A stretch of DNA of 64,000 nucleotides, taken from contig JACNFK010000020.1 in assembly GCA_014384675.1 (NCBI GenBank), positions 3,954 to 67,953 on the forward strand. The letters are read 5' to 3'. Both the position numbers and the translations under genes were made by a program. The stretch comes from Candidatus Thiopontia autotrophica (lineage in GTDB: Bacteria > Pseudomonadota > Gammaproteobacteria > GCF-002020875). Below are positions 21,519 to 44,600 of this stretch, piece after piece. Below the pieces are notes generated by a model. The model made no database searches, was not told the DNA's origin, and saw only the letters and a list, made by a program, of their open reading frames with translations. Every line of letters starts with the position of its first letter. Positions within the stretch are counted from its first letter, which is position 1.

Positions 21519-21525
21519 TACCAAC

Positions 21526-22959
21526 ATGGCCAGACTATTATTTGGATTGCTCTTGATCATTAGCAGCACGGCAGAGTCCGGCCGCCAGGGATACGAGGTG
21601 GTGACCATGAACAATGGCAACATCTTCCATGGCACTATTGCTCATGAGGCTTTCGCTATTGAGACCAGTTATGGTCTGGTCACAATTCCCTACTCTTTTG
21701 TTGCATCACTTACCCCTGGCCAGAAAGGTGGTACTGACCAGATTACAACTCATCCTGGAGAGCGTTTCAGCGGAACAATACAGGGTGATGAATTTACTAT
21801 TTTACGATTTGATCAACCTGCACTCCCTCTGGACCTGGCAGACATTTCAGAGATTATCTTCTCCAGGAAAACTGTACGTTCCCCACCACCGATACCTGTT
21901 GACTCAATCAGTACAGACAATGGAGACCGCTTCACTGCAACCATCTCAACCTCATCAATTCTGCTTGCAGGAGAGGATGGGCTCTCCATAATCCCCATCC
22001 AGCAGCTCCATATAATCGATCTTGAGGAGATAGAGGATCAGCTATCAGTTAACATTACCGACAATAATGGCAAGATACGACAAGGGGTAGTTAGAAACTC
22101 CTCAATACAGGCTGTGACCCGTTATGGAGACAGGGTTGATATCCCTTCATCACAGCTCTCACTGCTTGCAGTTAATGTCCATCACGGCAGAGCGCCATCT
22201 CTGTTTAATTATCGTCAACAACTTAACCCTGCAACCCAGTTTCATGATCTGCTATATCAGGATATTTCTGCTCCAGAGATGATCGCCTTGCGTGGAGGAG
22301 ACTTTACCAGAGGCTCAAGAAATAAGGATGGTGATAACGATGAGCTCCCTCTTCAACCAATGCGCCTTAGGCCATTTGCCATAGGTCAGTATGAGGTCAC
22401 TTTTGATGAGTATGATCTCTTCTGCGAGGTAACCGGTCATGATAAACCAGATGATAGCGGCTGGGGACGTGGTAACCGACCGGTTGTAAATGTGTCATGG
22501 AACGATGCAACTGCCTATACCGAGTGGCTTGCAACCAAAACACGCCAGCCATATCGCCTTCCATCTGATGCTGAGTGGGAGTATGCCGCGCGTGGTGGGA
22601 CAGAAACCGTGTTCTGGTGGGGTGATCAAGCGCCAACCACGGAGTCCAATTGTGATGGCTGTGGCAGCATATGGGATGGTGAGCGTACCGCACCTGTAGG
22701 GCGCTTCAGGCCAAACCTGTTTGGACTGCATGATACTGCCGGTAATGTATTCGAGATTGTTGCTGACTGTTGGTCTGACACCTATTCTGATGCCCCCATT
22801 GATGGCTCACCATATCTCAAGGGTGGCTGTGGAAAACGGGTTATCCGTGGTGGGGCATGGAGCTTTCCTCCACACGAGGTACGTTCCGCCAACCGCTGGC
22901 GCGACTTCCCAAGCAGAAAAAGTGATGATACCGGTTTTCGTGTTGCTCGCGATCTGTAG
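21526..22959 (+). CDS. FGE-sulfatase (formylglycine-generating enzyme / SUMF1 / PvdO / EgtB-C) domain protein with signal peptide and four N-terminal tandem repeats
   Basis: The C-terminal ~270 aa carry hallmark FGE-family motifs (RGGDFTRGS, NVSWNDATAYTEWL, RLPSDAEWEYAARGG, RVIRGGAWSFPP, GFRVARDL). The N-terminus has four ~45-aa repeats with G-[DE]-R-F-x-G-T-I ... IP-x-S consensus. Start at MARLLFGLLLIISSTAES, not the track start inside the IR element. Confidence 0.8.
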   Translation: MARLLFGLLLIISSTAESGRQGYEVVTMNNGNIFHGTIAHEAFAIETSYGLVTIPYSFVASLTPGQKGGTDQITTHPGERFSGTIQGDEFTILRFDQPALPLDLADISEIIFSRKTVRSPPPIPVDSISTDNGDRFTATISTSSILLAGEDGLSIIPIQQLHIIDLEEIEDQLSVNITDNNGKIRQGVVRNSSIQAVTRYGDRVDIPSSQLSLLAVNVHHGRAPSLFNYRQQLNPATQFHDLLYQDISAPEMIALRGGDFTRGSRNKDGDNDELPLQPMRLRPFAIGQYEVTFDEYDLFCEVTGHDKPDDSGWGRGNRPVVNVSWNDATAYTEWLATKTRQPYRLPSDAEWEYAARGGTETVFWWGDQAPTTESNCDGCGSIWDGERTAPVGRFRPNLFGLHDTAGNVFEIVADCWSDTYSDAPIDGSPYLKGGCGKRVIRGGAWSFPPHEVRSANRWRDFPSRKSDDTGFRVARDL

Positions 22960-24608: not shown

Positions 24609-24644
24609 TTGCACTCTACCGGTGAATATGTCATTCTGAAAGGG

Positions 24645-27458
24645 ATGAAGAAACTTACCCAACCCAGAGACCAGATTCTCCGTAGCAGAGTAAAACTGCT
24701 CGGCACACTCCTTGGCAATGTGCTTAAAAACCAGGCTGGTGAGGATATTTTTGATGCTGTAGAGACGCTGAGAAAGGGTTTTATAGCTCTCAGAAAAAAG
24801 GAGAATAGCCGAAAACGTGCCCGACTGATGCAGCTGATAGAACAGCTGGACCCAGATCAGCTCACCCATGTTATCAGGGCATTCAGCATCTACTTCAGCC
24901 TGATAAACCAGACTGAAGAGGAGTTTCAGCACCTGCAACGTCGCAAACAACTACTTACCGACAAGCAGTTGTGGAGAGGATCATTTGATGCAACCCTCCA
25001 CAGTTTTGTGGATGATGGAATTGACAAAGAAGATCTGCAATCCCTGTTAAACAGTCTGGCCTACATGCCGGTCATGACAGCCCATCCCACCGAGGCGCGT
25101 CGCAGAACAATCATGGAGGGTCTGCGCCGGGTTTTTGAGTATGAAGAGAAGCTGGATGACCCTCGTCTGAGCCGCTCTGAAAAAGATGAGATTATTCGTG
25201 ACCTGGAGGGACAGATACAGATACTCTGGAATACAGACGAGATTCGTACACGCAAACCAACTGTAGAGGATGAGATCAACCAGGGGCTCTACTATTACCA
25301 GAAATCTCTATTCAAGTCCGTCCCCAGACTCTATCGTAATCTGGAACGACACATCCGCAAGATATATCTTGATGGCGCTCCTACCATGGAGGGAGTTGAG
25401 GTGCCATCATTTCTCCGCTTTGGCTCATGGATTGGTGGAGATCGTGATGGCAACCCATATGTTACGCCTCAAACCACTGAAACCGCTGTACGTATCTATG
25501 CAAAAACCATTCTTGAGGAGTATATAGGTCGTGTTGACTCACTCATCCATGTGCTCACACACTCCAGTAAGCTATCAGATCTGCCACAGCCATTTATTGA
25601 CCAGGTTTCCCGGGATGAAAAATTCTGCCAATCAATCGATTGTGGCCAGATAGAGCGCTTTGATAATGAACCATATCGGCGTCGCCTCTTTGTTATTCAA
25701 CACCGTCTCTCACTAAATCTGGAGATCCTGAATCGCCGCATCTTCGGCAATAACGTGGACAATCGTATTCCTGGCTATGACTCCATTGATGAGTTCCGCC
25801 AAGATCTAGGGTTGATATACGATGCCCTGGTACATCAGGGAGATCTACGTACTGCCAGAGGAGACCTGCAGGATCTAATCAGGCTTGTCGAGACCTTTGG
25901 CTTCCACCTTCTCCATCTTGATATACGCCAGGAATCGACACGCCATACCGATGCTATTGCAGATATGCTAACCAGCAATGAAACCGGCATCGACTATAAC
26001 AGCCTTGATGAATCTGAACGAATTGAGCTGCTTGCCAAGGCAATAGAGCAGGATCGGCCCTTCACTCTACAGAAAAATCTACTGCAGACAGAAACCCTGG
26101 AGACTCTAGAGATATTCGATGTTATCTATCGTATGCGTGAGGAACTTGGTGATGAATCATTTGGCCACTATGTGATCTCCATGACTCATGAGGCAAGCCA
26201 TCTGCTAGAGGTGCTATTGCTTGCCCGCCAGGCAGGGTTGGTTGGGCGTGATATTGGTGGACGCTTCTGCCATCTCCAGGTGACCCCACTATTTGAAACC
26301 ATTGATGACCTTGACAGACTGAAACCGGTACTGAGCAGACTATTCAAAAACCAGACATACAGAGAGTTGCTCACTCTATCAGGCAATCTCCAGGAGGTGA
26401 TGCTGGGCTACTCTGATTCATCGAAGGATGGGGGTATCGCATCCTCATCATGGCATCTGTACAAGGCTCAACAACAGGTTGTAAAACTGACGAAGCAGTA
26501 CAAGATAGAGTGTCGCCTGTTCCACGGTCGTGGCGGTACCATTGGGCGTGGTGGCGGCCCTACCCATGATGCAATTCTTTCACAACCAGCCGGAACTGTT
26601 CATGGCCAAATCAAGTTTACCGAACAAGGAGAGGTGCTCTATTACAAGTATGCCAATGAGGAGACTGCACTCTACGAACTGACCATGGGCGTTACTGGAC
26701 TTATGAAAGCAACCACATGCATCATACGCAAAAGTGAATCCGAACACCCAGAGCATCGCAAGGTAATGGAGAGGCTAAGCAAGCTTGGGGAAAAGAGTTA
26801 TCGCAATCTGATAGATGATACGCCCGGACTACTGGACTACTTCTATGAAGCAACACCAGTCATGGAGATCGGACTCCTTAACCTGGGATCTCGTCCATCA
26901 CATCGTTCCAAGGGTAATCGTTCCAAGAGCTCCATTCGTGCCATCCCCTGGGTATTTGGCTGGGCCCAATCCAGACACACTCTCCCAGCATGGTATGGCA
27001 TAGGCAGCGCCCTGGAAAAGTGGCGCGATAACAAGCCTGAAAGGTTAAAACAGCTTAGGCAGATGGCCAGACAATGGCCCTACTTCAGCGCCCTCTTGGG
27101 TAATACACAGATGGCCCTGTTCAAGGGAGATATGGACATAGCGGAAGAGTATTCCATGCTGGCAGAGGACAAAGAGAGCGCACAAAAGATCTTCAGCATG
27201 ATCAGAGACGAACATGCCAAAACATGTCAGCAGCTCCTGGAGATTACCGAACAGGAGAGCATGCTTGAGGATATACCATCTCTCGCACTCTCTCTTATGC
27301 GCCGCAACCCCTATCTGGACCCACTTAACCACATCCAGATTATTCTGCACCAGAGATTTATCTCATCTCCAGATATAGAGAGAGAGGATGATCAATGGAT
27401 GCAGCCGCTGTTAAGAACCATTAATGCCATATCCAATGGGATGAGGAATACTGGCTAG
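24645..27458 (+). CDS. ppc: phosphoenolpyruvate carboxylase
   Basis: VMTAHPTE, GYSDSSKDGG, FHGRGGTIGRGGGPTH, and the C-terminal NTG end. Collinear with E. coli Ppc. Confidence 0.95.
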   Translation: MKKLTQPRDQILRSRVKLLGTLLGNVLKNQAGEDIFDAVETLRKGFIALRKKENSRKRARLMQLIEQLDPDQLTHVIRAFSIYFSLINQTEEEFQHLQRRKQLLTDKQLWRGSFDATLHSFVDDGIDKEDLQSLLNSLAYMPVMTAHPTEARRRTIMEGLRRVFEYEEKLDDPRLSRSEKDEIIRDLEGQIQILWNTDEIRTRKPTVEDEINQGLYYYQKSLFKSVPRLYRNLERHIRKIYLDGAPTMEGVEVPSFLRFGSWIGGDRDGNPYVTPQTTETAVRIYAKTILEEYIGRVDSLIHVLTHSSKLSDLPQPFIDQVSRDEKFCQSIDCGQIERFDNEPYRRRLFVIQHRLSLNLEILNRRIFGNNVDNRIPGYDSIDEFRQDLGLIYDALVHQGDLRTARGDLQDLIRLVETFGFHLLHLDIRQESTRHTDAIADMLTSNETGIDYNSLDESERIELLAKAIEQDRPFTLQKNLLQTETLETLEIFDVIYRMREELGDESFGHYVISMTHEASHLLEVLLLARQAGLVGRDIGGRFCHLQVTPLFETIDDLDRLKPVLSRLFKNQTYRELLTLSGNLQEVMLGYSDSSKDGGIASSSWHLYKAQQQVVKLTKQYKIECRLFHGRGGTIGRGGGPTHDAILSQPAGTVHGQIKFTEQGEVLYYKYANEETALYELTMGVTGLMKATTCIIRKSESEHPEHRKVMERLSKLGEKSYRNLIDDTPGLLDYFYEATPVMEIGLLNLGSRPSHRSKGNRSKSSIRAIPWVFGWAQSRHTLPAWYGIGSALEKWRDNKPERLKQLRQMARQWPYFSALLGNTQMALFKGDMDIAEEYSMLAEDKESAQKIFSMIRDEHAKTCQQLLEITEQESMLEDIPSLALSLMRRNPYLDPLNHIQIILHQRFISSPDIEREDDQWMQPLLRTINAISNGMRNTG

Positions 27459-31482: not shown

Positions 31483-31557
31483 GCTCTCTTCGTCTAGCGG
31501 TTAGGACGCTGGCCTCTCACGCCGGTAACAGGGGTTCGATTCCCCTAGGGAGTACCA
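31483..31557 (+). tRNA. tRNA-Glu-like, anticodon reads CUC
   Basis: GCTCTCTTCGTCTAGCGGTTAGGACGCTGGCCTCTCACGCCGGTAACAGGGGTTCGATTCCCCTAGGGAGTACCA. The D-loop, T-arm and overall sequence parallel E. coli tRNA-Glu (GTCCCCTTCGTCTAGAGGCCCAGGACACCGCCCTTTCACGGCGGTAACAGGGGTTCGAATCCCC...), but the anticodon loop is CUCUCAC, not CUUUCAC. Confidence 0.75.
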
Positions 31558-31654: not shown

Positions 31655-32281
31655 ATGAGCGATACCCAAACAAAAGTCCATGTCACCATTAACGGCAAAC
31701 AGATCCATGTCTCCTCGACACTATCTGTAATCCAGGCACTGTGGAAAGCAGGATATCCCCGCGTCCAGGGGGTTGGCTGTCTCGAGGGTGTATGTGGATC
31801 CTGCCGGGTATTGGTGCGTCGCGCAGAAACTGACGAGATAAGCATGGAGATGGGGTGCCAGACCCTGGTTGAGGATGGTATGGAGGTAATGTTTCTGGTC
31901 TTTCCGTCACCATCCCAGCATAGCTACAGTCTGGAACAGATACAAAATTCATGGGAGGTCCAGACCGAGTTCCACAAGATTTTTCCTGAAGCACAACAGT
32001 GCCGCAATTGTCACGGTTGTACAACATCATGCCCCAAGGATATTGATGTTGAGAAGGGGGTTGAGCTTGCGGTAAAGGGGCGTTTTAAAGAGGCCGGAGA
32101 CCTGTTTATTGAGTGTGTTATGTGTGATCTCTGCATGACCGGATGTCCTGAACAGATTGCTCCAAACCATGTTGGCCTGTTTGCTCGACGTGTGACCGCA
32201 TACTTTCACTCTCGCCCCTCCAACCTGATTAATCGCCTTGAAAAGATCCGTACTGGCGCCCTACAGGTGATCAAGGAGTAA
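31655..32281 (+). CDS. succinate dehydrogenase / fumarate reductase iron-sulfur subunit-like protein (short, 208 aa)
   Basis: [2Fe-2S] motif CLEGVCGSC (cf. SdhB CREGVCGSD) plus two Cys clusters, CRNCHGCTTSCP and CVMCDLCMTGCP, in the positions of the SdhB [4Fe-4S]/[3Fe-4S] sites. Confidence 0.8.
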   Translation: MSDTQTKVHVTINGKQIHVSSTLSVIQALWKAGYPRVQGVGCLEGVCGSCRVLVRRAETDEISMEMGCQTLVEDGMEVMFLVFPSPSQHSYSLEQIQNSWEVQTEFHKIFPEAQQCRNCHGCTTSCPKDIDVEKGVELAVKGRFKEAGDLFIECVMCDLCMTGCPEQIAPNHVGLFARRVTAYFHSRPSNLINRLEKIRTGALQVIKE

Positions 32282-32283
32282 TT

Positions 32284-33921
32284 ATGGATAAGGTCAATAA
32301 CGAGGCAATATCCTATCAGAAGGCAGTCGCCAACTATCGCATCAAACAGGAGCGGCCTCTGCCAATACCTGAAATTGATAGTGAAAAACTGTTAAACAGT
32401 TTTCACCCAGACTATATCGAAGAGTGCCTAACTACACTAAAGGTTGGAGCCAACAAGGGAGACCCTTGCCACAAACAGCTTGCCGATACACTGCAGTCAG
32501 ACTCAAGAATCAGTGAAGCTGATTTGGCAGGAGCCGCGACTGTAGAGACAGATGTACTGGTTATTGGTGGTGGTGGTGCAGGATGTGCTGCCGCACTGAT
32601 TGCACAACAACAGGGGGCCAGAGTAATCCTGGCTACAAAACTGCGTCTTGGGGATAGCAACACAGTAATGGCAGAGGGCGGTATTCAAGCCTCCATCAAC
32701 AAGGATGATTCGCCCCAATTCCACTATAACGACACCATGAGTGCCGGCCATCAGAAATCTGATCCTGACCTTGTATCTCAACTGGTGCTGGATGGACCTG
32801 ATGTTATTCGCTGGCTTATCCAGCAGGGCATGCAGTTTGATCTGGATGAGTTTGGTGACCTGCTTACCAGGCGTGCTGGTGGTACCTCAGCGGAACGCAT
32901 ATGTTTCTATCGTGACTACACTGGCCTGGAGATGATGCGAGTACTACGTGAATCTGTCCATAACAGCAACATTGATGTGTGGGACTACAGTCCAACAGTG
33001 GAGCTACTAGGGGATGATCAGGGTGGCTGCTCTGGAGCTGTTATCTCTTCACTGAAAAATCGAAAATATATCCAGATAAGCGCAAAGGCAGTTATTGTCG
33101 CAACTGGCGGCATTGGAAGAATGCACCTTAATGGTTTTCCAACATCAAACCATTTCGGTGCAACTGGTGATGGCCTGGTACTCTCCTATCGCATGGGAGC
33201 GCAACTGCGTGATCTTGACTCTTTTCAGTACCATCCAACTGGTCTTGCATACCCCTTCCACCTTGCAGGCAGCCTTATAACTGAAGGAGTTCGCTCCTGT
33301 GGAACCTATCTGTTAAACGGGAATGGAGAACGCTTTGTTGATGAGCTCTCCGCTCGAGATATTGTTGCTGCCGCCGTTATTCGTGAATGTCGTGAAGGTC
33401 GAGGCATAATTACAGAGGATGGCCATCAGGGAATCTGGCTGGACACCCCAGGGCTGGAGGCCAGGCAACCCGGGGTTCTGCAGAAGAGGTTTCCCAAGCT
33501 AATGCACCTGGGAGAGAAAGCCGAAATCAACCCGGCTGAAACACCACTACTTATATACCCTACCCTCCACTATCAGAACGGTGGTGTAGTAATTAATGAA
33601 GATTGTGAAACCTCAGTGCCAGGACTCTTCTCTACTGGTGAGGTAACCGGTGGAATTCACGGAAGAAATCGTCTTATGGGAAATGCTCTTCTTGAGATTA
33701 TCAGCTTTGGGCGTAAGGCAGGAGCTGCCGCCGCCAAAAAAAGAAAAGACAAACGCAGCAGTCAACTATCTATTGAGCACCTAAATACACTCCGTAGAGA
33801 GCTGACCAACGCAGAACTCTCTATGGATCTACAGGGACCAATACTCTTTCCTGAATATGCAAAATTTGATCTGGACTCAGATTATGTTGGTCTGCACCGT
33901 AACCGAAGGCAGAGCTCATGA
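32284..33921 (+). CDS. FAD-dependent fumarate reductase / L-aspartate oxidase-family flavoprotein with ~85-aa N-terminal extension
   Basis: GxGxxG VLVIGGGGAGCAAALIA, then MAEGGIQA (no His for covalent FAD, as in NadB and soluble FRDs), HPTGLAYPFHLAGSLITEGVRSCGTYLLNGNGERFVDELSARDIVAAAV (close to E. coli NadB FHPTALYHP...LTEALRGEGAYL...RDIVARAI), and GNALLEIISFGRKAG. Stop overlaps the next start (ATGA). Confidence 0.8.
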   Translation: MDKVNNEAISYQKAVANYRIKQERPLPIPEIDSEKLLNSFHPDYIEECLTTLKVGANKGDPCHKQLADTLQSDSRISEADLAGAATVETDVLVIGGGGAGCAAALIAQQQGARVILATKLRLGDSNTVMAEGGIQASINKDDSPQFHYNDTMSAGHQKSDPDLVSQLVLDGPDVIRWLIQQGMQFDLDEFGDLLTRRAGGTSAERICFYRDYTGLEMMRVLRESVHNSNIDVWDYSPTVELLGDDQGGCSGAVISSLKNRKYIQISAKAVIVATGGIGRMHLNGFPTSNHFGATGDGLVLSYRMGAQLRDLDSFQYHPTGLAYPFHLAGSLITEGVRSCGTYLLNGNGERFVDELSARDIVAAAVIRECREGRGIITEDGHQGIWLDTPGLEARQPGVLQKRFPKLMHLGEKAEINPAETPLLIYPTLHYQNGGVVINEDCETSVPGLFSTGEVTGGIHGRNRLMGNALLEIISFGRKAGAAAAKKRKDKRSSQLSIEHLNTLRRELTNAELSMDLQGPILFPEYAKFDLDSDYVGLHRNRRQSS

Positions 33922-35177
33922 GTGACTTATCAAAACTGAATCAGGTACTACTTCATCCTGATCGTCGCTTCGGTGCTGATCTCGATACCTGGCTGGTTGA
34001 TATTGGTGGTGACGGTCTGGAGAAAGCAATACTGAATCCGGAACATATTCTACCAACCATTCGTGAAGCAAAGTTACTGGGGCTCGGTGGTAGCGGGTTC
34101 CCAACCCATATCAAGTGGGAATTTGTAGCGAATGAACCGAGTGACCAGGACAAATATCTCATCTGTAACGGAAATGAAGATGAGCCGGGAACATTCAAAG
34201 ACCGAATCCTGCTTCAGGAGACCCCTCATCAGGTTATTGAAGGGGCAATTATTACCGCACTGGCCACTGGCACAAACCAGATTGTCTTCTATATAAATCC
34301 TGAACAGGAAGGTTCGCTTGAGGCGATGAAAGAGGCCACAAACCAGTGGAGTGAAACCGACTATGTAAACCAGGTCTCCAACATCCTTGGACGCCCTCTT
34401 GAGTTTTATATTGTTGCCAGCTCTGGTCACTATATTGGTGGTGAAGAGACTGCGGCAATTGAGTCTATTGAGGGCAAATTTCCATTTCCACGTGGCAAGC
34501 CACCATATCCTGCTAAAGCAGGACTATTTGGACTCCCTACACTGATTAATAATGTAGAGACCATGGCCAACGTCTCTCATATTATTCGCAATGGTGCAGA
34601 GTGGTTTATAAACCAGGGAGAGGGAGACTCGCACGGCACAAAGATCTTCTCCCTGAGTGGTGATGTACTACGTCCCGGAGCTTATGAACTCCCGATGGGT
34701 ACTCCCCTGTCTGACCTGATCCATATCCATGGTGGAGGCATGTTGCTGGACAGAAAACTCAAGGCAGTCTTTACCGGTGGCCCCTCCAACACAATCTTGA
34801 CACCAAAGGATCTGGATGTCCCGCTGGACTTTGACTCGGTGCAGGAGAGACGATCCAGCCTGGGTACAGGGGCAATGATCGTAATCTCAGAGGGGACAGG
34901 AGTTGTACGCCGGGTGACAGAATATGTCTCGTTCTTTGCAAACTCATCCTGTGGGCAGTGTCCTTCATGCAAAACAGGAACATTTTATGCGTCTCAACTG
35001 CTCTCGCGAATTGACAGCGGAAATGGAACCCGTGCCGATCTTGACACATTGATTAATCTAACCCGCATCCTCCCGGGAAGTGGCCGTTGCCATCTTTTGG
35101 ACGGGGCAATAAAACTGCTTGATAGCTCTCTCTACCATTTTATGGATGAATATGAGCAACCACTGAGACACAGCTAA
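33918..35177 (+). CDS. NuoF / 51-kDa-like NADH-binding FMN iron-sulfur flavoprotein
   Basis: GLGGSGFPTHIKWEF (NuoF GRGGAGFPTGLKW), YLICNGNEDEPGTFKDRILLQETPHQVIEGAIITALATG (NuoF [28 protein letters not shown]), GGEETAAIESIEGK, and [4Fe-4S] SCGQCPSCKTG (NuoF SCGQCTPCREG). Confidence 0.8.
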   Translation: MSDLSKLNQVLLHPDRRFGADLDTWLVDIGGDGLEKAILNPEHILPTIREAKLLGLGGSGFPTHIKWEFVANEPSDQDKYLICNGNEDEPGTFKDRILLQETPHQVIEGAIITALATGTNQIVFYINPEQEGSLEAMKEATNQWSETDYVNQVSNILGRPLEFYIVASSGHYIGGEETAAIESIEGKFPFPRGKPPYPAKAGLFGLPTLINNVETMANVSHIIRNGAEWFINQGEGDSHGTKIFSLSGDVLRPGAYELPMGTPLSDLIHIHGGGMLLDRKLKAVFTGGPSNTILTPKDLDVPLDFDSVQERRSSLGTGAMIVISEGTGVVRRVTEYVSFFANSSCGQCPSCKTGTFYASQLLSRIDSGNGTRADLDTLINLTRILPGSGRCHLLDGAIKLLDSSLYHFMDEYEQPLRHS

Positions 35178-35371
35178 ACAAACCTAAACTTCGGCGAAAT
35201 CTAGGTAAAAAACCGGTAATCGTCGGTTATTTTCTCCAAAAACCACAATACACACATAGCTTATATAGTCATTTCAGCTTGATTCCACACCCTGTTTCAT
35301 GAGATGATTAGCGGCTATTGCCACCGACCTGTCAAGGTCAACAAAAGAAAAAGCTCTGCGAGGAAATCGTT

Positions 35372-37259
35372 CGTGCAACCAACTAGCATCAAAGAAAATA
35401 TTGTAGAAATTGTAAGCGACTCTGGAGAAGGAGCCCAAAAATGTGGGCAGACCTTCGGAAATATAAGTGCCAAAATGAACAATGGAGTCTGGACGGTAGA
35501 AATTATCCCTGCCGAGATCCAGCCACCTGCGCGCACCCCATCTGGAGCCAGTGGTATTCGTATCCGCTTTGGCTCTAAATATATGACCAATGTCGGCAAT
35601 GAGGGTGACCTGGTTGTCGCCTTCAATGAACAGGTTCTCTACTCCAGAATAGCCAATGGTGCCTACAAAAAAGGCACTATTGTTCTGTTGGATAATCGCT
35701 GGGAAAGTGATGCTTCCACAGAAATTCAGGAGATGTATAGAAAGGCCGTTGTCGAATTCCGTGAGCATGGGCTGGTTGTCCATGAGCTACCGATCCACGA
35801 GGCCTGTCTGGAGGTAGTCAAAGACCCCCGCAAAGGGAAAAACATGTTTGTCCTCGGCATGCTCTGCCGAATCTATAACCGCGACAAAGAGATGAGCCGA
35901 AACGAGATTGCCATCACCTTTGCCGGCAAGAAAAACGCGATCATCACCAGCAATCAAAACCTGTTTGATGCTGGTTACGCCTTTGCAGAGAAGCATGTTG
36001 GCGACTATTTCTTTGATATTCCTCCAGCAGAAGAGATGGGCAGTCAGAAAATGGTTGTCACTAACGGGAATACTGCAATTGGTTTGGGGGTGATGGCCTC
36101 TGGAATGGAGTTAGTCTCCATGTACCCCATTACTCCGGCAACCTCTGCCTCACACTATCTGGCAGATGTTTACCCGGCAGCTGGAGGCTTCGTTCATCAG
36201 GCAGAGGATGAGATTGCGGCAATAGCATTTGCAATTGGTGCCTCCTACGCTGGCAAAACAGCCTGCACAATTACCTCAGGTCCAGGTATGGCACTGAAGA
36301 CCGAGAACATTGCTCTGGCAGTAATGGCAGAGATCCCGCTGGTGATTGTAGATGTTCAGCGTGGCGGGCCATCTACTGGTCTCCCCACCAAAATTGAGCA
36401 GGGAGACCTCCTCTCATCCCTTTATGGCATGCCTGGAGATGCGCCCAAGATTATACTTGCTGCCGCCACCATTGCTGAGTGTTTTAGTATGGTAGTGCTG
36501 GCCCGCAAACTGGCTGAAACCTTCCGCACCCCAGTAATCGTCTTGACAGATGCAAATCTGGCAACCGGGGTACAGCCTTGGGTACGTCCGGAATTGAGCC
36601 GTGACATGCTGGCACCACCACTGGATCAATCAGAATGGAACCCGGATGTTCCAGCCTATGACTGGGATGAAAAAACCGGGCTCTCACAACGCCCAATCCC
36701 GGGAATGCCCAGGGGTGAATATGTACTGACAGGCCTCTCTCACACCAAACAGAGCAAGGTATCCTATGAGTCGACCGAGAACCAGCACAGCACAAGCATG
36801 CGTAGTCGCAAACTGGCCACCTTGCAAAGCACCCTGACTCCTCCAGAAATACACGGTGACGAGAGTGGAGACCTGTTAGTTGTTGGCTGGGGTTCTACCT
36901 ATGGCGCAATCAACGAGGCAATTGATAATCTTCGTGAAAAAGGGAGCAAGGTCTCCTCAATACACCTACGATTCCTCTCTCCATTGGAGCCTGGACTAAA
37001 AGAGATTTTCTCTAGATTCAAAAAGGTAATTACGGTAGAGGTCAACTACAGTGACGACCCCAAGGCACCGATGATTACCGATGAGAACCGTCGCTACGCA
37101 CAGCTGGCTAGCATACTACGTATTCAGACTCTGGTTGATGTGGACTGCTGGTCAGTGGTCTATGGACACCCCCTGCAACCGGAACTTATTGAGAACGCCA
37201 TTCAGGAACGGTTGGATCAGGTTACTGACAACCGATCCTCACAGGACAAAGGAGAATAA
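35372..37259 (+). CDS. korA: 2-oxoglutarate:ferredoxin oxidoreductase subunit alpha, two-subunit type
   Basis: GTG start with GAGG 8 nt upstream gives MQPTSIKENIVEIVSDSGEGAQKCGQTFGNISAKMNNGVWTVEIIPAEIQPPARTP. This matches the conserved KorA N-terminus of two-subunit OFORs (SGDSGDG..QLTG....A..GND..T.PDFPAEIRAP). The track start at 35304 adds an implausible leader. Followed 2 nt later by korB. Confidence 0.85.
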
Positions 37260-37261
37260 CG

Positions 37262-38224
37262 ATGTTTGGAATCAAGGCAGATTGGTCCCTCGATATTCAG
37301 GAGCGTTACTTCACCCTGGATGATTATGAAGGAAATGAGGCACGCTGGTGCTCCGGATGTGGTGACCATGCAGTACTGGCAACAGCTCATCGCATCCTGC
37401 GTGATGCTCAGCTACCACCGGAAAAATCAGTTTTTGTCTCCGGAATCGGCTGCTCAAGCCGGATGCCACACTATATGGCAACTTATGGACTCCATGGGCT
37501 CCATGGTCGCGCCCTCCCTCTGGCCTGCGGGGTAAAATCTCGACGCCCAGATCTTGATGTATGGGTAGCTACCGGAGATGGTGACTGTTTCTCTATTGGT
37601 ACAGCTCACTGGATTCATGCCGTGCGTTATAACATGGATATGACAGTGCTTGTCTTTGACAACCAGATCTATGGATTGACCAAAAAGCAGACCTCTCCAA
37701 CCACCCCAATCGAGTTCAAGACCAGCACTCATCCGCAGGGAGCATCTCTGGATATGCTCAACCCCAATACAGTTACTCTGGGAATCACCAACGCATCATT
37801 TGTTGCGCAGGTTGTGGACTGGAACCCTCCCCTGCTGCACGAGACTCTGAAGGCGGCACACAAACACAAGGGGACAAGTTTTGTCAGAATCATTCAGCGT
37901 TGCCCGGTCTTTGTAGACTCCATTACCAAGGAGCTTCAGGAGGATGCCTCCAGACTGCGTCTACTGACCCATGAAAACGGGATCCCCGTCGCCAAGGGAA
38001 TTGAAAAGCTCTTTCCTGAAACCATGGAACATGACCCTGCAGATATGGCTGAAGCTCTTCAAATTGCACGTGACGAGACCGAGAAGGGAATCATTCCTGT
38101 TGGTCTCCTCTATCAGAATAGTAACATCCCTTGCTACAGTGACCTCTCTAGCGTCGGCCACGATGCTACGGATGAAATAAAGATTGCTGCAACCAATGAC
38201 GCCCTGGATGCGTTTGCGATCTAA
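37262..38224 (+). CDS. korB: 2-oxoglutarate:ferredoxin oxidoreductase subunit beta, TPP-binding
   Basis: N-terminal Cys cluster WCSGCGDH ... GIGCSS for the [4Fe-4S]. Canonical TPP motif GDGDCFSIG...(x27)...VFDNQIYGLT. Confidence 0.88.
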   Translation: MFGIKADWSLDIQERYFTLDDYEGNEARWCSGCGDHAVLATAHRILRDAQLPPEKSVFVSGIGCSSRMPHYMATYGLHGLHGRALPLACGVKSRRPDLDVWVATGDGDCFSIGTAHWIHAVRYNMDMTVLVFDNQIYGLTKKQTSPTTPIEFKTSTHPQGASLDMLNPNTVTLGITNASFVAQVVDWNPPLLHETLKAAHKHKGTSFVRIIQRCPVFVDSITKELQEDASRLRLLTHENGIPVAKGIEKLFPETMEHDPADMAEALQIARDETEKGIIPVGLLYQNSNIPCYSDLSSVGHDATDEIKIAATNDALDAFAI

Positions 38225-38242: not shown

Positions 38243-40762
38243 ATGAGTAGTGCACATTCACTTCCCATACTGAACTCTACGCAATCAGAGCCAGAATCAG
38301 AGACCAAAACTCTAAGGACTCTTCACCACTTTCACCTTGGAGACCCTAGTGTAGAACGTGAGACCAGACAGATTGGCAGTGATTATCTTCCTGCACTGCT
38401 TGGTCCATTTCGTGATGTCTCAAAGATTAGTTATGACTATCCATTGGTTCTCTTCTCCAGAGAGTCCCGCCAGAGCAGTCAATATGCACTACCTCTCTCC
38501 ACATTTCTCCAGGAGTCTGTAGCAGAATTTGCCCCCGGCGAGAATGGTGCACGAATACTTAAAGATAACCTGGGTTGGCTGGAACATGCAATTCGAGGTG
38601 AGCTGGAAGGGCATGATGGGCCACTCCAGCTCTTCCCGGCAGTAAACCGTTCTGTTGAAGCACTGTTACAGCACCTCTCTCTATCTGGTGACAACCAGAA
38701 GGCGGTCGAGAATGATCTTGAGCAACTTAAGGGTTTCTTCAGTGAAGCGGATCAACTCCTCCCATACGATCGCTATACCGCAATTCATCTAATGATTCAT
38801 CTGGTCCATGGACGCTCTGAAGAGCGCTGGGACCAGTTTGAGATTGAGCTCCAGGATTTACGCCGCCAACTCAATCAGATTCTTGATATCGAGCAGCGCA
38901 AATCAGGTGAAGCAATGGGCGCCTCTGCACTACAGAAAAGTGTTGGCAGCAATGCCAATCGCTTTAATTCCGAGGCCCTCTCTTCAGTGCTTCCCCAGAA
39001 TAGTGGCACAGTCACCATGTCTGAGGCGCGCAAGGATAGAATCACTCATGCAGCAGAGATCATAAACCAGTTCCAGCGAGATCCTGTTCAGGTACGCTTT
39101 ATCCATACTGGCGACTTCTCTGGTCCATGGGCTGATCATCCCAACCACTTTGAGACTACAGTTGATGCAGACCCTTGTCACAAGGCGACATCCATATTCG
39201 ACAGTGAGGCAAATGAGCTTGCCGAGCTCTTTACTGCATGCAGAATTGCCCGCCTGGAGATTGACAACAGTTATGATGCAACTGTTCATGACCCCTGGTT
39301 TGCCAACTTTAACTGGGAGGCTTTTTCAAAGGAGGAACTCTTACTTGTTCCAGCAACGGTTGCTTTAGAGCCGGCAAATCGATTGGCCCGTGAGGGGCTT
39401 AGCTCCTTCTCTCAGCTACTGGGCTCCGGACGACCCATTCAGATCCTGACTCGAGTCAAGGGTCATAGTAATCCTGCTGCTAGTGAAGAAGAGTCCCCAT
39501 TCCATGATTTCCGTCTGGAACTAGGGTATATAGCAACAGCACATCGTCAATGCTACGTGGCCCAAACCTCTGCTGCTCGCTATCAACATTTGATGAGCAG
39601 CTTCCTGGAGGCAACCGAGATTCCCCACACTGGAGTCCACCTGATTAATACCGGGGTTCAGATTACCAGTAATCTGCAGGAAGATGATCCTCACATGATC
39701 GATCCATCAATCCAGAAGAGCAGAAAACAGTTCCTGATGGATCCATGGATGGTGGCCAGTGCTGCCCTGGAGGGGCGTGTTCACCCCTTCTTCCGGATGA
39801 ATCCAGAACTGGGGGATACCTTTGCCGAGCGGATGAATTTTAGTGTCAATCCGCAGCCTGAAAAGGATTGGGCCATCCATCCGTTCAGCTATCAAAATGA
39901 GAATGGTGAGGTGACTCATACGGAATTCGCCTTCACCTTTGCCGACTATGCACTGCTGGTACCTAAACTCAGAAACCATTTTCGCCTTATTCCTGGTAAT
40001 TTTGAGTCCGAGGCTCTAACTCCAATTGCTGAGTATCTGCAACAATCCGAGGAAAACAGCTTCTCTCTAGTACCATTCGTCTGGACTATCAACAAGGATA
40101 ACCTGCTCCACAGAGCTGTTGTATCCCGAGAACTGGTGCTTGCGTGCAAGGATAGGCTCAACTACTGGCATACCCTGCAGGAGCTCTCTGGAGTACGTAA
40201 TCCACACGCAGACCAGGCTGTCAATGAGGCTAACCTGTTGATGGAGGCAAAACAGAACAGCATTATCAGTGAGCTTCAGCAGAGTCACGCCGAGGAGATT
40301 AGTCAACTACAGGCCGATGCAACAGCAACGGTGATGAGTAAACTGGCTAAGGTGCTGATGGGAATGAACCTCGAACAGAATATCGTTGCCGGCGCTGGAT
40401 CTACTGCAACTACTGCAACTACTACAGAGACAGAAGAGCAAGACTCCGAACCAACCGAGGAGGCTGTCGAAGAGATGGCTTCAGAGGAGGAGCCTGTTAT
40501 CGAGATCTCTGAAGACCCATGGATCGAATCCATTCTCTGCACAACATGCAATGATTGCACCAATATGAATCCACAAATGTTTGTCTACAACGATGATAAA
40601 CAGGCATACATAGCTGACCCCAATGCTGGAACCTATGCGGAACTGGTTGAAGCGGCAGAAATATGTCCATCCCGCTGTATCCACCCTGGAATGCCACTCA
40701 ATAGCAGTGAACCTGATCTGGATGAGCTGATCGAGAGAGCAGCCCCATTCAACCAGGGATAG
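38243..40762 (+). CDS. 839-aa protein of unknown function with a C-terminal single-[4Fe-4S] ferredoxin domain
   Basis: AAGAGGAA RBS. I recognise no motifs in the first ~750 aa (no Rossmann or P-loop, and no citrate synthase, aconitase or IDH signatures). The last ~80 aa, CTTCNDCTNMNPQMFVYNDDKQAYIADPNAGTYAELVEAAEICPSRCIHPG, fit the Pyrococcus-type single-cluster ferredoxin pattern CxxCxxC...(x~30)...CP. A Thr/Glu-rich acidic linker precedes it. Confidence 0.7.
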   Translation: MSSAHSLPILNSTQSEPESETKTLRTLHHFHLGDPSVERETRQIGSDYLPALLGPFRDVSKISYDYPLVLFSRESRQSSQYALPLSTFLQESVAEFAPGENGARILKDNLGWLEHAIRGELEGHDGPLQLFPAVNRSVEALLQHLSLSGDNQKAVENDLEQLKGFFSEADQLLPYDRYTAIHLMIHLVHGRSEERWDQFEIELQDLRRQLNQILDIEQRKSGEAMGASALQKSVGSNANRFNSEALSSVLPQNSGTVTMSEARKDRITHAAEIINQFQRDPVQVRFIHTGDFSGPWADHPNHFETTVDADPCHKATSIFDSEANELAELFTACRIARLEIDNSYDATVHDPWFANFNWEAFSKEELLLVPATVALEPANRLAREGLSSFSQLLGSGRPIQILTRVKGHSNPAASEEESPFHDFRLELGYIATAHRQCYVAQTSAARYQHLMSSFLEATEIPHTGVHLINTGVQITSNLQEDDPHMIDPSIQKSRKQFLMDPWMVASAALEGRVHPFFRMNPELGDTFAERMNFSVNPQPEKDWAIHPFSYQNENGEVTHTEFAFTFADYALLVPKLRNHFRLIPGNFESEALTPIAEYLQQSEENSFSLVPFVWTINKDNLLHRAVVSRELVLACKDRLNYWHTLQELSGVRNPHADQAVNEANLLMEAKQNSIISELQQSHAEEISQLQADATATVMSKLAKVLMGMNLEQNIVAGAGSTATTATTTETEEQDSEPTEEAVEEMASEEEPVIEISEDPWIESILCTTCNDCTNMNPQMFVYNDDKQAYIADPNAGTYAELVEAAEICPSRCIHPGMPLNSSEPDLDELIERAAPFNQG

Positions 40763-40770
40763 GAGCAGCC

Positions 40771-41634
40771 TTGAACAGTCTGCTAGCATCTCCAGCTATA
40801 ATGATGGGAATAGGACTCTTTTTCGGGGTAATTCTTGCTGTTGCCTATCGTCTGCTAAAGGTAGACGAAGACCCCAGAATTGATGAGACAGAAGAGATGC
40901 TACCTGGCACCAACTGTGGTGCATGTGGTGTTCCTGGATGCCGTGCTTTTGCTGAAGAACTCATCAAAGGCAGTGTGGAACCAAGCCAATGTACGGTTGC
41001 CCCCAAGGATGAGATCGAGGAAATTGCCGAATTCCTGGGAGTTGATGCTGGCTCACAGATAAAACGGGTTGCCCGTCTTCATTGTGCTGGTGGCAAAGAG
41101 GAGGCCTGGCAGATTGCAGAGTACCAGGGATTTGATAGCTGCCGCGCTGCTGCTGTAGTCTCTGGAGGTGGCAAAGGGTGTTCATGGGGATGTCTGGGAC
41201 TGGCAGACTGCGAGATCGCATGTGATTTTGATGCCATTCACATGAATGCCAATGGTCTCCCGGTTGTGGATCTGGATAAATGTACAGCCTGTGAGGATTG
41301 TGTAGTTGCATGTCCAAAGGATCTTTTCAAGATTCACCCGATTAATGAACACCTCCTGGTTCAATGCAGTGCCCCACTGGAGGGGGATGCGATTCTCTCA
41401 CTATGTGGTACCGCCTGTGATGGCTGTGGACGTTGTGCAACAGATGCCAATCCTGGCTTGATAGAGATGGTGGATGGCCTGCCTGTTGTAGATTACAGTA
41501 GCATGGTGGAAGAGACACCAGAGGCCACCTATCGCTGCCCCACTGAAGCCATTATATGGATAGATGGTGGACAGTTTGACCGCAAAAACAGAAACCTGAC
41601 CGAGGGTCAAAAACGTTATGCCCAGCTTCGCTGA
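40771..41634 (+). CDS. rnfB: Rnf electron-transport complex subunit B
   Basis: N-terminal TM helix, RnfB-specific LPGTNCGACGVPGCRAFAEELI (E. coli RsxB [21 protein letters not shown]), then two ferredoxin-type CxxCxxCxxxCP domains. TTG start with AGGAG 6 nt upstream; an ATG at 40801 is possible. Confidence 0.85.
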   Translation: MNSLLASPAIMMGIGLFFGVILAVAYRLLKVDEDPRIDETEEMLPGTNCGACGVPGCRAFAEELIKGSVEPSQCTVAPKDEIEEIAEFLGVDAGSQIKRVARLHCAGGKEEAWQIAEYQGFDSCRAAAVVSGGGKGCSWGCLGLADCEIACDFDAIHMNANGLPVVDLDKCTACEDCVVACPKDLFKIHPINEHLLVQCSAPLEGDAILSLCGTACDGCGRCATDANPGLIEMVDGLPVVDYSSMVEETPEATYRCPTEAIIWIDGGQFDRKNRNLTEGQKRYAQLR

Positions 41635-44600
41635 AATCGCAAACCGCATCTACCGCAAAGTCATCGGAGCAGATAACACTCTGCAAACAGACAGTCACGG
41701 TATTACCACAACGCTAAATGGTAGTGTTGCGGTAGCTACAGTTGAGAGCATTCTATCGGAGGCTGCCGCATGTGGTGAGGCCTTCCCTCCTGAGAAAGGT
41801 TCCATTGCATGGCGTAACGAACAGCAGCGTCAACAGGTTAATCTTTTTGGAAAGCCACTCCTTAACATAGAGAGCGGAAGTGCTCGTGGTGCACTATCTG
41901 CGGCCATGGGGCTTGCGATGGCTGGCAAACGGGCCTCCTGCAGTCTATGGTCAAGTGACCTTGCCAATGCACAGGATCTTGTCAGACGTGCAGTTGGTCA
42001 CCACTTGCCACTGGTTATCCATGCCACCAGCAAGGCACTTCCCCTGAATGGCGAAAGCCATGAAGATAGTGATGAAGGTATTCATCAACTCAGAGATAGT
42101 GGAGCATTTATTCTCTATGCACAGAATGTACAAGAGGCCATTGATTTCACCCTGATTGCCAGAGCAGTTGCTGAGAAGGCACTTGTTCCAGGTATAGTAA
42201 TAATGGATGGTCACGAAACCGCGTCATCACCACAACAGATTGAACTGCCATCTCCAGAACTTATCGAAAACCTGGTTGGCAACTATGCTGATTCAATTCC
42301 GGTTGCAGAGCCAGCCCAGCAACTTGTATTTGGAGAAGAGCGCCGCCGGGTGCCAAATTGGTACAGTCTGGATAATCCAACACTACAGGGAAGCTATCGA
42401 GACCCATACAGTTTTGGGCTTGGCACCATCTCTCACACCAAGTTCTTTGGAGCACTGGTTCAGGAAATTTTGCAGGATACCTTCACCGGTTTCGCTCAAC
42501 TAACAGGTAGAAATTACAGTGCTGTCACCTACCTCGGCAAGAAGAGAGCTAAAAAGATTATTGTTTGCTATGGATCAATAACAGGTCGTTGTAATAACAT
42601 CTCCAACCAACTTAAAGAGATTGCTGTAGCTAGTATTCATCTGCTTGCACCATTTCCTGCCAAAACACTACATGAGACTCTACAGAACTGTAGTGAGGCT
42701 ATAATCCTTGATCGCAGTGAATCACTGCTTGATGAAAAGCCTCAGTTGTATAGAGAAGTTTTGCCTCTGCTCTCACATAACTGTAAGGCAAACTCCGTCA
42801 TCTATGGAGTTGGAGGACTTCCTGTTCACGACTCTGATCTGGTGGCAGCGTTTAAGGCTCCTCACCATGATGACGCTATAAGGGTTGGAGTTACCCCACT
42901 ACCCAACAACAGCAATCCAAAACAGCAGGTCCTAACTGACCTGCTGGAGAGGAATTATCCTGAACTGGGGGAACTTGGCATTACTGGAGGGAGAGAGAAC
43001 AACAGCCACCCCTCCACACCATCCAACTCACAGCATACCCCTATGGCAGTACGCCACCTGGGATCTGATCAAGATAGCGGATACCAGAACCTGTCACGAT
43101 TCTGGGATCAGACCGGAGTTCTCTACCGGGACGGGATGGAGAGTAACCAGGGTATTGATCCATTCGCTGCAGTTGGTCACATTCCTCCGCTAACCTCAAC
43201 ATTTATCACTACTGGCTGCAACACTCTGCCTCTTCTCAATCCGGAGCAGTGCACAGGATGTGGCAAGTGTTGGAGTAACTGTCCTGACAGTGCAATTGTA
43301 GCTGTCTCCCTCTCTCCCACCCAACTTCTGGAGGCAGGTATAAAGATGGGAGGAGCAGATGCACTGCGCCCCCACCTATCCAAACTCGCCAAACAGATGA
43401 GCCTCACCATCAACAGCGGTGAAGCTAAAGAGCTTTTAGAAAAAAGCTGGGATGAGTTAATGACACACTCCCCCCTCCCGGATGAACGCAGAACCAGTGC
43501 GGAAGATGCCATATCACAGCTTGCATCCAACATTGGTGAGCTCCCTCTCATCCATACAGAACCTCTTTTCCACCACCCGGAACGGCTAAAAGCACAATCC
43601 GGGGAGCTGCTATCAATTGTAGTCAACCCTGACAGCTGCAAGGGATGTGGAATCTGTGCCGAACTTTGTAAAACAGAATCAGATACGCCTGCACTCACTA
43701 TGCAGGAACAGAGTGATGAAGAGCTGGACCACGCCTATAAGAGCTGGAGAGTATGGGAGCAACTTCCAGACAGTAGCTCAACAACCATTATTGATTATGG
43801 TGCTCGTCCGGAAATCAGCACACTCAATGCAACCATGCTCTCTCGCCATGCATCTATGGCAATGGCTGGTGGTGACTCTGCAGAACCAGGTTCTGGTGAG
43901 AAAATTGCTATCAGACAACTGTTGGGGATAACCGAATATCATCAACAGCCAATGGTACACAGACTTCTGGAGAATATTGATGAGACTCATCAAAAGCTAC
44001 TCTCCGGAATCCGGGAAAAACTGGCAGTAGCCTCTCATGCCGATGATCTCTCCTCGCTGGCAGAAGGTCTTGAGAGCGTATCCAGCAGGCAAATTGATCT
44101 GAGTGCATTGGCAGAAAAGACTGCCAATATTGAAAGTGATGGTGTAAATGCGGAAGAGCTGAAAGAGTGGATAAATCTGGCTGAGAGAATCCGCACAGAG
44201 AGAGAAAGGATTGCAAGCGGAGAACACTCTCTGGGACGCTCCCGCTATAGCATGGTATTTGCTCCTGGAACTGCAGCAGCCTGGGCGGGAACCTTTCCAT
44301 CCAACCCATTCCAGGTCCCTGTAGTTATTGGATCTGCAGGAGAGGTCGGTGCCCTTGCATCCGGCCTGATAGAGGGTCAACTGGAACAGGCCACAGAGAT
44401 TCATCGCATTTTGCGCAAAGCAAAACTACTACTGAAGAATGGCTCTCTTGCAGAACGCAAGGCCACAGAACAGCTTGTCTGGGGGGATTTAAGCAGAGAT
44501 GAACTACAGCAATCGCCTCCTCTATTGCTAATTGGCAATGACACCACGCTGGGTGCAGAATCTGCAGGGGAACTTATCTGGTTACTTAACAGCAGACTCC

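Follow-up and report, generated by a model that had tools for sequence, protein, structure and literature searches.

A NuoF-linked, anchor-less fumarate reductase-like gene trio in Candidatus Thiopontia autotrophica and its relatives: a predicted soluble NADH:fumarate oxidoreductase

[quoted passage not shown] We propose that the probable product of this trio is a heterotrimeric NADH:fumarate oxidoreductase of the cytoplasm, with a NuoF-type module standing in for the membrane anchor. An earlier, sequence-only reading of the window had predicted a soluble enzyme of this kind, and the invariant catalytic residues, NuoF motifs, conserved gene order, and tricarboxylic acid (TCA) or reductive TCA (rTCA) cycle context described below are in line with that prediction. 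The three open reading frames (ORFs) that it reported were recovered on the + strand at exactly the positions it had assigned to them, and they encode 208, 545, and 419 amino acids (aa).

In the proposed enzyme, the three proteins would assemble into one complex. NADH would be oxidized at the FMN of the NuoF-like subunit, single electrons would exit via its N3-type [4Fe-4S] cluster and pass along the three clusters of the Fe-S subunit (a [2Fe-2S] and two [4Fe-4S] clusters), and the non-covalent FAD of the FrdA-like flavoprotein would receive them, reducing fumarate to succinate at a site lined by His, Arg, Thr, and Glu. This direction of flow, and the geometry of the cluster chain relative to the two flavoproteins, are parts of the proposal. 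The NuoF-type module would fill the position held by the membrane anchor and quinol site in complex-II-type enzymes, and the fumarate step would therefore be strongly exergonic without involving the quinone pool.

Results

The flavoprotein has the dicarboxylate-binding residues of fumarate reductase

The flavoprotein begins with a structured N-terminal extension of 85 aa, continues with an FAD-binding domain and its capping domain (Pfam FAD_binding_2, residues 90 to 469, 2.3e-78), and ends in a truncated C-terminal region. This last part, after the FAD domain, is about 75 residues long, compared with approximately 180 to 205 in Escherichia coli SdhA and FrdA, and the protein has no match to Pfam Succ_DH_flav_C. 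When we aligned it with FrdA, SdhA, and NadB from the E. coli K-12 record, we found that FrdA residues H232, T244, E245, R287, H355, and R390 are kept as H317, T333, E334, R337, H429, and R463, respectively. This His/Arg/Thr/Glu set is invariant in 36 homologues with 64 to 91% identity. Because both carboxylate-binding His/Arg pairs are invariant, we favor a C4-dicarboxylate over a mono-acid enoate as the substrate.

A structural model of the flavoprotein generated with AlphaFold2 (AF2) had a predicted local distance difference test (pLDDT) score of 72.6 and a predicted template modeling (pTM) score of 0.79. The N-terminal extension was modeled with high confidence (pLDDT of approximately 76 to 92 for residues 10 to 90), and the best Foldseek match of the model was E. 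coli FrdA (1kf6_A). Together, the invariant dicarboxylate set and FrdA as the best fold match support a fumarate-reducing role for the trio. The His residue that binds FAD covalently in FrdA (His44) and SdhA (His45) is replaced by Asn126, which is likewise invariant among the 36 homologues. The FAD is thus predicted to be bound non-covalently. The loss of this His had been noticed in the earlier reading, as had a capping domain resembling that of NadB; a 4-residue insertion in this domain is common to the two proteins.

Based on these features, the sequence-only reading had described the flavoprotein as closer to L-aspartate oxidase (NadB) and soluble fumarate reductases and had considered aspartate or iminoaspartate as an alternative substrate. 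A flavoprotein that acts on L-aspartate/iminoaspartate or another 2-enoate while exchanging electrons with NAD(H) would be in keeping with the absence of the covalent-FAD His, as in NadB, with the common capping insertion, and with the nadB score given below, and several homologues have been annotated as "L-aspartate oxidase" by JGI. Among the NCBIfam hidden Markov models (HMMs), the flavoprotein scores 349 bits with TfrA, 301 bits with nadB, and 297 bits with sdhA_frdA, so that TfrA is the best match and all three fall below their cutoffs; for nadB (TIGR00551), the score is 300.9 bits against a cutoff of 452.75. The residue that sets L-aspartate oxidase apart from enzymes of the SDH (succinate dehydrogenase) and FRD (fumarate reductase) types is Glu121, a base for the amino group of the substrate (PMC10249383). 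At this site the flavoprotein and all 36 homologues have Ala (Ala198), whereas Glu is kept in 51 of 51 NadB-type representatives. Moreover, NadB works without an Fe-S or NuoF partner, and the genomic context of the trio is that of the TCA cycle, not of NAD biosynthesis.

The phylogenetic position of the flavoprotein also argues against a NadB assignment. We built a neighbor-joining tree of 127 sequences, scored for the diagnostic residues; this tree is approximate and carries no bootstrap values. It separates an "N-extension" clade (Asn at the His44 site, no Glu121, short C terminus), a group of short proteins of approximately 400 aa, the SdhA/FrdA types bearing His44, and the NadB clade in which the 51 Glu121-bearing members fall. 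The window flavoprotein groups with the N-extension clade, apart from the NadB types as well as from the SdhA/FrdA types, and its core is approximately 38% identical to each of these two. Since Glu121 is changed to Ala, the HMM score falls short of the cutoff, and the protein lies in a different clade, we ruled out identity with NadB, and we consider any of the aspartate, iminoaspartate, or other 2-enoate activities highly improbable for the trio.

When 1.84 billion cluster representatives were searched exhaustively, the entire gamma- and betaproteobacterial family fell into one 50% cluster, and more distant members with the same N-terminal extension, recognizable by an HPDY motif, were retrieved. 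The extension was reported as novel in the sequence-only reading. It is real, but it is common to a wider family that includes the proteins P0242 and P0243 described below.

The Fe-S subunit has motifs for three clusters and weak similarity to FrdB

The Fe-S protein contains an N-terminal [2Fe-2S] motif (C42, C47, C50, and C68) followed by two full CxxCxxCxxxCP motifs (C116/119/122/126 and C154/157/160/164), and it matches Pfam Fer2_4, Fer4_9, and Fer4_17. From these motifs it is predicted to hold one [2Fe-2S] and two [4Fe-4S] clusters. All 12 Cys residues are invariant in 41 homologues. In profile comparisons with hhalign, it aligned with E. coli FrdB at 94.9% probability over 122 collinear columns, extending from the [2Fe-2S] domain through both cluster motifs, compared with 31% for SdhB and 0.4% for the N terminus of E. 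coli NuoG. The profile match to NuoI was limited to the dicluster part. The 12 invariant Cys residues and the collinear FrdB alignment support the electron chain that we propose.

The earlier description of this protein as SdhB-like holds for the inventory and order of its clusters but less so for its ancestry, since the homology is weak: with the dhsB model TIGR00384, the score is 23 bits and the cutoff 88. We find "short SdhB/FrdB-like" acceptable as a description of the cluster arrangement that the motifs predict. A protein of identical sequence (P0121) is annotated just as "(2Fe-2S)-binding protein."

We also considered that the Fe-S protein may be a fragment of NuoG, a possible reading that we did not adopt. 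Its AF2 model has low confidence (pLDDT of 64), and a Foldseek search with this model pointed to the NuoG-like subunits of Bfu enzymes. The model is poor, however, and the aligned part comprised approximately 80 residues, all within the common beta-grasp [2Fe-2S] domain, whereas the hhalign probabilities given above favor FrdB over NuoG.

The third subunit keeps the NADH, FMN, and N3 cluster sites of NuoF

The third protein of the trio matches the Pfam domains Complex1_51K, SLBB, and NADH_4Fe-4S, consists of just these three core domains, and has no extra Fe-S domains. The ligands of its N3-type [4Fe-4S] cluster are C345, C348, C351, and C391. Among 70 orthologues, which range from 411 to 434 aa, conservation is at least 97% for the FMN/NADH motifs as well as for the four Cys residues of N3. 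These results confirm its earlier assignment as a NuoF-like NADH/FMN/[4Fe-4S] protein. The best PDB sequence matches were the NuoF subunits of M. smegmatis and Aquifex, at approximately 300 bits. The NuoF-like FMN/NADH loops, the four retained N3 Cys residues, and these matches to genuine NuoF proteins support NADH as the predicted electron donor of the proposed enzyme.

Conserved gene order ties the three subunits together, and no membrane anchor is encoded nearby

Scanning species-representative genomes, we found 149 stretches that encode a relative, of which 80, each a 20-kb stretch, were analyzed as related loci. The subunit combination is thereby kept in well over 100 genomes, mostly next to genes of the rTCA cycle. 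The order and coupling of the trio are kept across approximately 80 species-level genomes. The Fe-S gene lies upstream of the flavoprotein gene in 74 of 75 related loci, and a NuoF-like gene directly follows the flavoprotein gene in 71 of the 77 loci with enough DNA to tell. A 4-nt overlap is the commonest junction, both between the Fe-S and flavoprotein genes (19 loci) and between the flavoprotein and NuoF-like genes (29 loci). In the window, the Fe-S and flavoprotein genes meet at GGAGTAATTATG (GGAG-TAA-TT-ATG), and the flavoprotein and NuoF-like genes are joined by an ATGA overlap, as the sequence-only reading had described. Additionally, the N-extension clade includes a polypeptide in which the Fe-S protein and the flavoprotein are naturally fused (P0243, 727 aa; locus L085, 5250-7433, GCA_054283745.1), and this fusion provides Rosetta-stone support for the two acting as one unit. 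Gene order, overlaps, and this fusion all favor a single enzyme.

None of the three proteins has a transmembrane (TM)-like segment. We detected no SdhC/D or FrdC/D homologue, no TM-rich ORF on the same strand, and no NuoE homologue in the window or the 80 related loci. The earlier reading had remarked on the missing SdhC/D-type anchor and had named sdhCD-like anchor genes beside these genes in related genomes as the observation that would count against it; our survey came out negative on that point. We therefore rejected a membrane-anchored complex II with anchors encoded nearby, either here or in relatives, and the lack of an anchor, a TM segment, and a NuoE gene supports a soluble enzyme. 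The only recurrent TM ORF in the 80 loci encodes a conserved 117-aa protein with four TM-like segments. It occurs in five tubeworm-symbiont loci (L027, L030, L034, L038, and L039) on the minus strand, approximately 100 nt past the NuoF-like gene and before korA; it is outside the operon, has no Pfam match, and is not SdhC/D-like by BLAST.

The trio occurs in Piscirickettsiaceae-type metagenome-assembled genomes (up to 91% identity), Thiohalomonadaceae, Sedimenticolaceae including Sedimenticola, the symbionts of the tubeworms Escarpia and Lamellibrachia and of lucinid clams, Thiomargarita, and purple sulfur bacteria, with Chromatiaceae among the hosts. It is also present in betaproteobacterial nitrifiers, namely Nitrosomonas mobilis (L035) and Ca. 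Nitrotoga (L042 and L073), at 63 to 66% identity. In these nitrifiers, the trio adjoins genes for an IS1595-type transposase, a nitrilase, and a GNAT protein. Its presence there suggests horizontal transfer and a role beyond the rTCA cycle.

The Fe-S/flavoprotein core is found with alternative electron-input modules

More distant relatives of the trio combine the Fe-S/flavoprotein pair with other genes. The P0242 flavoprotein is 44% identical to the window flavoprotein and has the same N-terminal extension, and its Fe-S partner is 30% identical over the full length. At this locus (L086, 1-9659, a Logan SRR24270839 contig), the pair directly follows korD-A-B-C, hdrA, mvhD/flpD, hdrC, and hdrB. 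Two further family members (L087 and L088) have the same Fe-S partner, the order of the two genes varying, and no obvious donor gene lies close by. Because relatives are paired either with Hdr genes or with no obvious donor gene, the family appears to represent one Fe-S/flavoprotein core that is combined with alternative electron-input modules, of NuoF type or of Hdr/Flx type.

This modularity raises the question of whether the pair in the trio is a fumarate reductase that depends on ferredoxin or another donor, with the NuoF-like protein serving as an accessory, an alternative entry point, or a separate NADH:acceptor enzyme. Consistent with such an arrangement, the wider family includes the Hdr-linked and donor-less pairs just described, and 6 of 77 loci have no adjacent NuoF-like gene (L011, L025, L029, L032, L033, and L036, with none within 10 kb downstream). 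Against it, the NuoF-like gene is directly downstream in the other 71, most commonly with a 4-nt overlap, and the NuoF-like protein itself carries no further acceptor domain. We thus regard a different donor as unlikely. Among the loci without an adjacent NuoF-like gene, L025 and L032 have a gene for an alpha-type carbonic anhydrase in its place, and in L033 the Fe-S/flavoprotein pair is flanked by aconitase and pntA.

Downstream ferredoxin-dependent genes and the possibility of electron bifurcation

In 28 of 48 related loci, korA is located within 6 kb downstream of the trio, typically in the order korA-korB-p839-rnfB-like, where p839 encodes an orphan 839-aa protein with a ferredoxin domain. 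In the other 20, including those of Nitrosomonas and Nitrotoga, the trio stands without any ferredoxin-dependent partner. The first arrangement led us to consider an enzyme that bifurcates or confurcates electrons, in which the exergonic flow from NADH to fumarate is coupled to the endergonic reduction of ferredoxin, possibly together with the 839-aa protein or the RnfB-like protein, and thereby feeds KorAB directly.

Several observations are compatible with this model. KorAB, the 839-aa protein, and the rnfB-like gene lie 3' of the trio in the 28 loci mentioned above, and a paralogous pair (44% identity) resides in the kor-hdr cluster of L086, a cluster type for which bifurcation to fumarate and ferredoxin has already been proposed (PMC6315080). 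The PDB matches by sequence and fold include HydABC, NfnABC, and StnABC, in which the bifurcating subunit has the NuoF fold, and such a reaction is energetically allowed. However, the NuoF-like protein is minimal (411 to 434 aa across the family) and lacks the additional Fe-S domains of the HydB/NfnB type; PDB matches bearing them are 584 to 630 aa long. No NuoE-like gene is found in the window or the 80 loci, the trio stands alone in 20 of 48 loci, and ferredoxin could already be reduced through the Rnf complex that this cluster encodes. We judge the coupling of fumarate and ferredoxin reduction by the trio to be quite unlikely.

The absence of a NuoE-like subunit and of extra Fe-S domains in the NuoF-like protein rules out canonical bifurcation of the Bfu type. 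What would be left is a minimal, NuoE-less enzyme through which NADH reduces fumarate and ferredoxin at once, the latter either free or as the domain of the 839-aa protein. We give this version little credence. If it were true, NuoE-less bifurcation would supply low-potential electrons for CO2 fixation by KorAB in microaerobic sulfur oxidizers.

Genomic neighborhood of the trio

The coordinates of the trio and its neighbors are listed in Table 1. The hairpin and T-run that follow tRNA-Glu(CTC) lie approximately 40 nt 5' of the start of the Fe-S gene, which leaves very little room for a promoter of the trio. On the other side, korA begins after a 126-nt spacer that contains a weak hairpin. The korAB identification is supported by a TIGR03710 score of 499 bits, above the cutoff of 482.75.

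The 839-aa protein encoded next has no Pfam, NCBIfam, or PDB match outside its C-terminal ferredoxin domain. In related loci it is always encoded 3' of korAB (41 to 74% identity), and it travels with korAB together with the RnfB-like gene. Its counterpart was labeled "por-like" in Table S1 of Rubin-Blum 2019 (PMC6315080). Possibly, the 839-aa protein serves KorAB as a dedicated electron carrier or as a tether. The gene for a divergent PFOR-like protein, which has no TPP_enzyme_C match, is inserted between the rnfB-like gene and sucCD, so that rnfB is set apart from rnfCDGEA.

The order of the cluster agrees with that of "rTCA cycle cluster 2" of the Escarpia laminata symbiont (PMC6315080). Across the related loci, aconitase is often encoded upstream of the trio in divergent orientation, and mdh lies upstream on the same strand in six loci. 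TCA and rTCA neighbors, comprising korAB, sucCD, mdh, aconitase, Rnf, and carbonic anhydrase, support a role for the trio at the fumarate step. Along with mdh, sucCD, korAB, and Rnf in the cluster and ppc upstream, the trio would help to convert oxaloacetate reductively into succinyl-CoA and 2-oxoglutarate, as part of what could be either a full rTCA cycle or a reductive branch. The genes farther upstream, from acs to ppc, fit a thiotrophic, possibly host-associated lifestyle.

Table 1. Positions of the trio and neighboring features in the window
Feature	Coordinates	Strand	Description
Fe-S subunit gene	31655-32281	+	ORF, 208 aa
Flavoprotein catalytic subunit gene (predicted)	32284-33921	+	ORF, 545 aa
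NuoF-like subunit gene (predicted NADH-oxidizing)	33918-35177	+	ORF, 419 aa
tRNA-Glu(CTC)	31483-31557	+	Marks the 5' limit of the trio; a strong hairpin and a T-run come next
korA and korB	35304-38224	+	651 aa and 320 aa; two-subunit 2-oxoacid (2-oxoglutarate):ferredoxin oxidoreductase
Orphan 839-aa protein gene	38243-40762	+	C-terminal single-[4Fe-4S] ferredoxin domain (residues 761-814)
RnfB-like Fe-S protein gene	40771-41634	+	287 aa
Divergent PFOR-like protein gene	41618-45394	+	1258 aa; weak POR_N and PFOR_II matches, two Fer4 motifs
Rest of same-strand cluster	41618-52855	+	PFOR-like, sucC, sucD, rnfC-D-G-E-A, mdh
rnfCDGEA	47488-51728	+	
Acetyl-CoA synthetase gene (acs)	14586-16571		Upstream of the trio
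Ankyrin-repeat protein gene	18178-19188		Upstream of the trio
Diheme cytochrome and SQR/FccB-like flavoprotein gene pair	19387-21324		Upstream of the trio
FGE/PvdO-like protein gene	21484-22959		Upstream of the trio
Phosphoenolpyruvate carboxylase gene (ppc)	24609-27458		Upstream of the trio

Discussion

The features described here point to a soluble NADH:fumarate oxidoreductase as the probable product of the trio. Energetic considerations favor NADH as the donor in bacteria of this kind, which presumably rely mainly on ubiquinone. Fumarate reduction has been estimated at approximately +24 kJ/mol with ubiquinol, versus approximately -58 kJ/mol with NADH (PMC13147460). [quoted passage not shown] Further support comes from the E. 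laminata symbiont, in which orthologous genes are transcribed (PMC6315080).

A number of observations weigh against this assignment or limit its reach. To our knowledge, the structurally characterized NuoF enzymes among the PDB matches all have a NuoE-like partner, and none is encoded with the trio in the window or the 80 loci. The homology of the Fe-S protein to SdhB/FrdB is weak, Pfam places its [2Fe-2S] domain in the NuoG type (Fer2_4), and Foldseek with the low-confidence model favors NuoG-like subunits; either order of the clusters toward the two flavins is therefore possible. Because 6 of 77 loci encode the Fe-S/flavoprotein pair with no adjacent NuoF-like gene, NADH need not be the sole donor for the core. 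Likewise, the trio is not tied to the rTCA cycle, since Nitrosomonas mobilis and Ca. Nitrotoga carry it without korAB. The enzymatic role of the family as a whole is one that we infer. Finally, expression of the trio in the E. laminata symbiont is low, at 0.8 to 2.0 log(TPM+1), where TPM is transcripts per million (PMC6315080 Table S1). For korAB and the Hdr-linked pair of the same symbiont, the values are 2.7 to 3.0 and 3.4 to 3.5 log(TPM+1), respectively (PMC6315080).

Genes of the trio have appeared in earlier work. The E. laminata symbiont cluster was listed as [quoted passage not shown] (PMC6315080 Table S1), and the gene order of our locus L034 is exactly that of this list. The trio genes are thus already published in a 2019 supplementary table, without interpretation. 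In Thiomargarita, the flavoprotein was named "frdA" and used as an indicator of the rTCA cycle (PMC4914600). Our literature searches uncovered neither a text in which the trio is read as a fumarate reductase linked to NuoF nor any biochemical study of it. The combination of an FrdA-like flavoprotein, a short Fe-S protein, and a NuoF-like protein would be a variant of known fumarate reductases that is new to biochemistry. A 2026 survey remarked that unusual AB-only fumarate reductases suggest undiscovered forms of the enzyme, and it came to the conclusion that "novel forms of fumarate reductase" must exist (PMC13147460).

How oxygen-exposed autotrophs that do not use menaquinone drive the fumarate step of the rTCA cycle is an acknowledged gap, for which the trio offers a concrete and widespread candidate; several of its carriers, such as Sedimenticola thiotaurini and Thiorhodococcus, are cultured. 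The family would also illustrate modular evolution, with one Fe-S/flavoprotein core plugged into either a NuoF-type NADH module or an Hdr/Flx module. Current database names for the trio genes include "ferredoxin," "L-aspartate oxidase," "FAD-binding protein," and "NuoF." Such names can mislead metabolic reconstructions by introducing a false nadB and false complex I subunits while leaving the fumarate reductase step missing.

Comparison with known systems

In fold, catalytic residues, and the order of motifs for three Fe-S clusters, the trio resembles E. coli FrdABCD and SdhABCD. It differs from these enzymes in having neither anchor subunits nor the covalent-FAD His, in its truncated C-terminal domain, and in its additional N-terminal domain. 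The third cluster is predicted to be [4Fe-4S] rather than the [3Fe-4S] of SdhB/FrdB because the third motif has four Cys residues, and the predicted donor is NADH, in contrast to the quinol of complex II. With NadB, the flavoprotein shares a (predicted) non-covalent FAD, a similar capping insertion, and the same His/Arg dicarboxylate site, but it is distinguished by the loss of Glu121, its Fe-S and NuoF-like partners, a different C terminus, and its separate clade.

A NuoF-type subunit combined with a [2Fe-2S]-containing Fe-S subunit is also seen in the NuoEF module, in HydABC, NfnABC, and StnABC, in NAD-dependent formate dehydrogenase, and in Hox enzymes. In comparison with these NuoF-containing soluble enzymes, the trio has no NuoE-like subunit, no extra cluster domains on its NuoF-like protein, and no subunit of NuoG length, and its catalytic partner is an FrdA-like flavoprotein. 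The NuoF-like protein also differs from NuoF of complex I: its scores are under the equivalog cutoffs (TIGR01959, 389.9 bits against 558.65; NF010120, 324 against 389), and no nuo genes adjoin the trio to form an operon context.

Another close known system is the soluble NADH-dependent fumarate reductase FrdABCDE of H. thermophilus, an rTCA organism (Miura et al. 2008, cited in PMC13147460). Like this enzyme, the trio would be anchor-less and cytoplasmic, with an FrdA-type flavoprotein, an Fe-S subunit, and, by prediction, NADH as the donor, which in H. thermophilus makes the fumarate step irreversible. The NADH-binding subunit of the five-subunit H. thermophilus enzyme is reportedly GltD-like, and two further subunits are said to be Hdr-like. 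By this description the trio is set apart, as no GltD or Hdr domains were found among the genes neighboring the trio (the NuoF-like gene, korAB, the 839-aa protein gene, and the rnfB-like gene), and the one candidate site for NADH is on the single NuoF-type FMN/[4Fe-4S] subunit.

The trio is distinct from methanogen-type TfrAB, as it scores 348.7 bits against a cutoff of 718 for TfrA (NF004900) and 22 against 385 for TfrB (NF004898), and the 208-aa Fe-S protein lacks the CCG (HdrD-like) domain of TfrB. In tubeworm symbionts and Thioflavicoccus, a "tfrAB-like" putative fumarate reductase has been described in korABCD/hdrABC/flxABCD clusters (Rubin-Blum 2019, PMC6315080). These pairs belong to the same clade as the trio flavoprotein (HPDY extension, Asn at the His44 site, short C terminus) and have a short Fe-S partner with 12 Cys residues, and both they and the trio adjoin a 2-oxoglutarate:ferredoxin oxidoreductase. 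They differ in the input module, which is Hdr/MvhD/Flx in the tfrAB-like clusters and NuoF-like in the trio, and tubeworm symbionts carry the NuoF-linked trio and the Hdr-linked pair at separate loci (PMC6315080).

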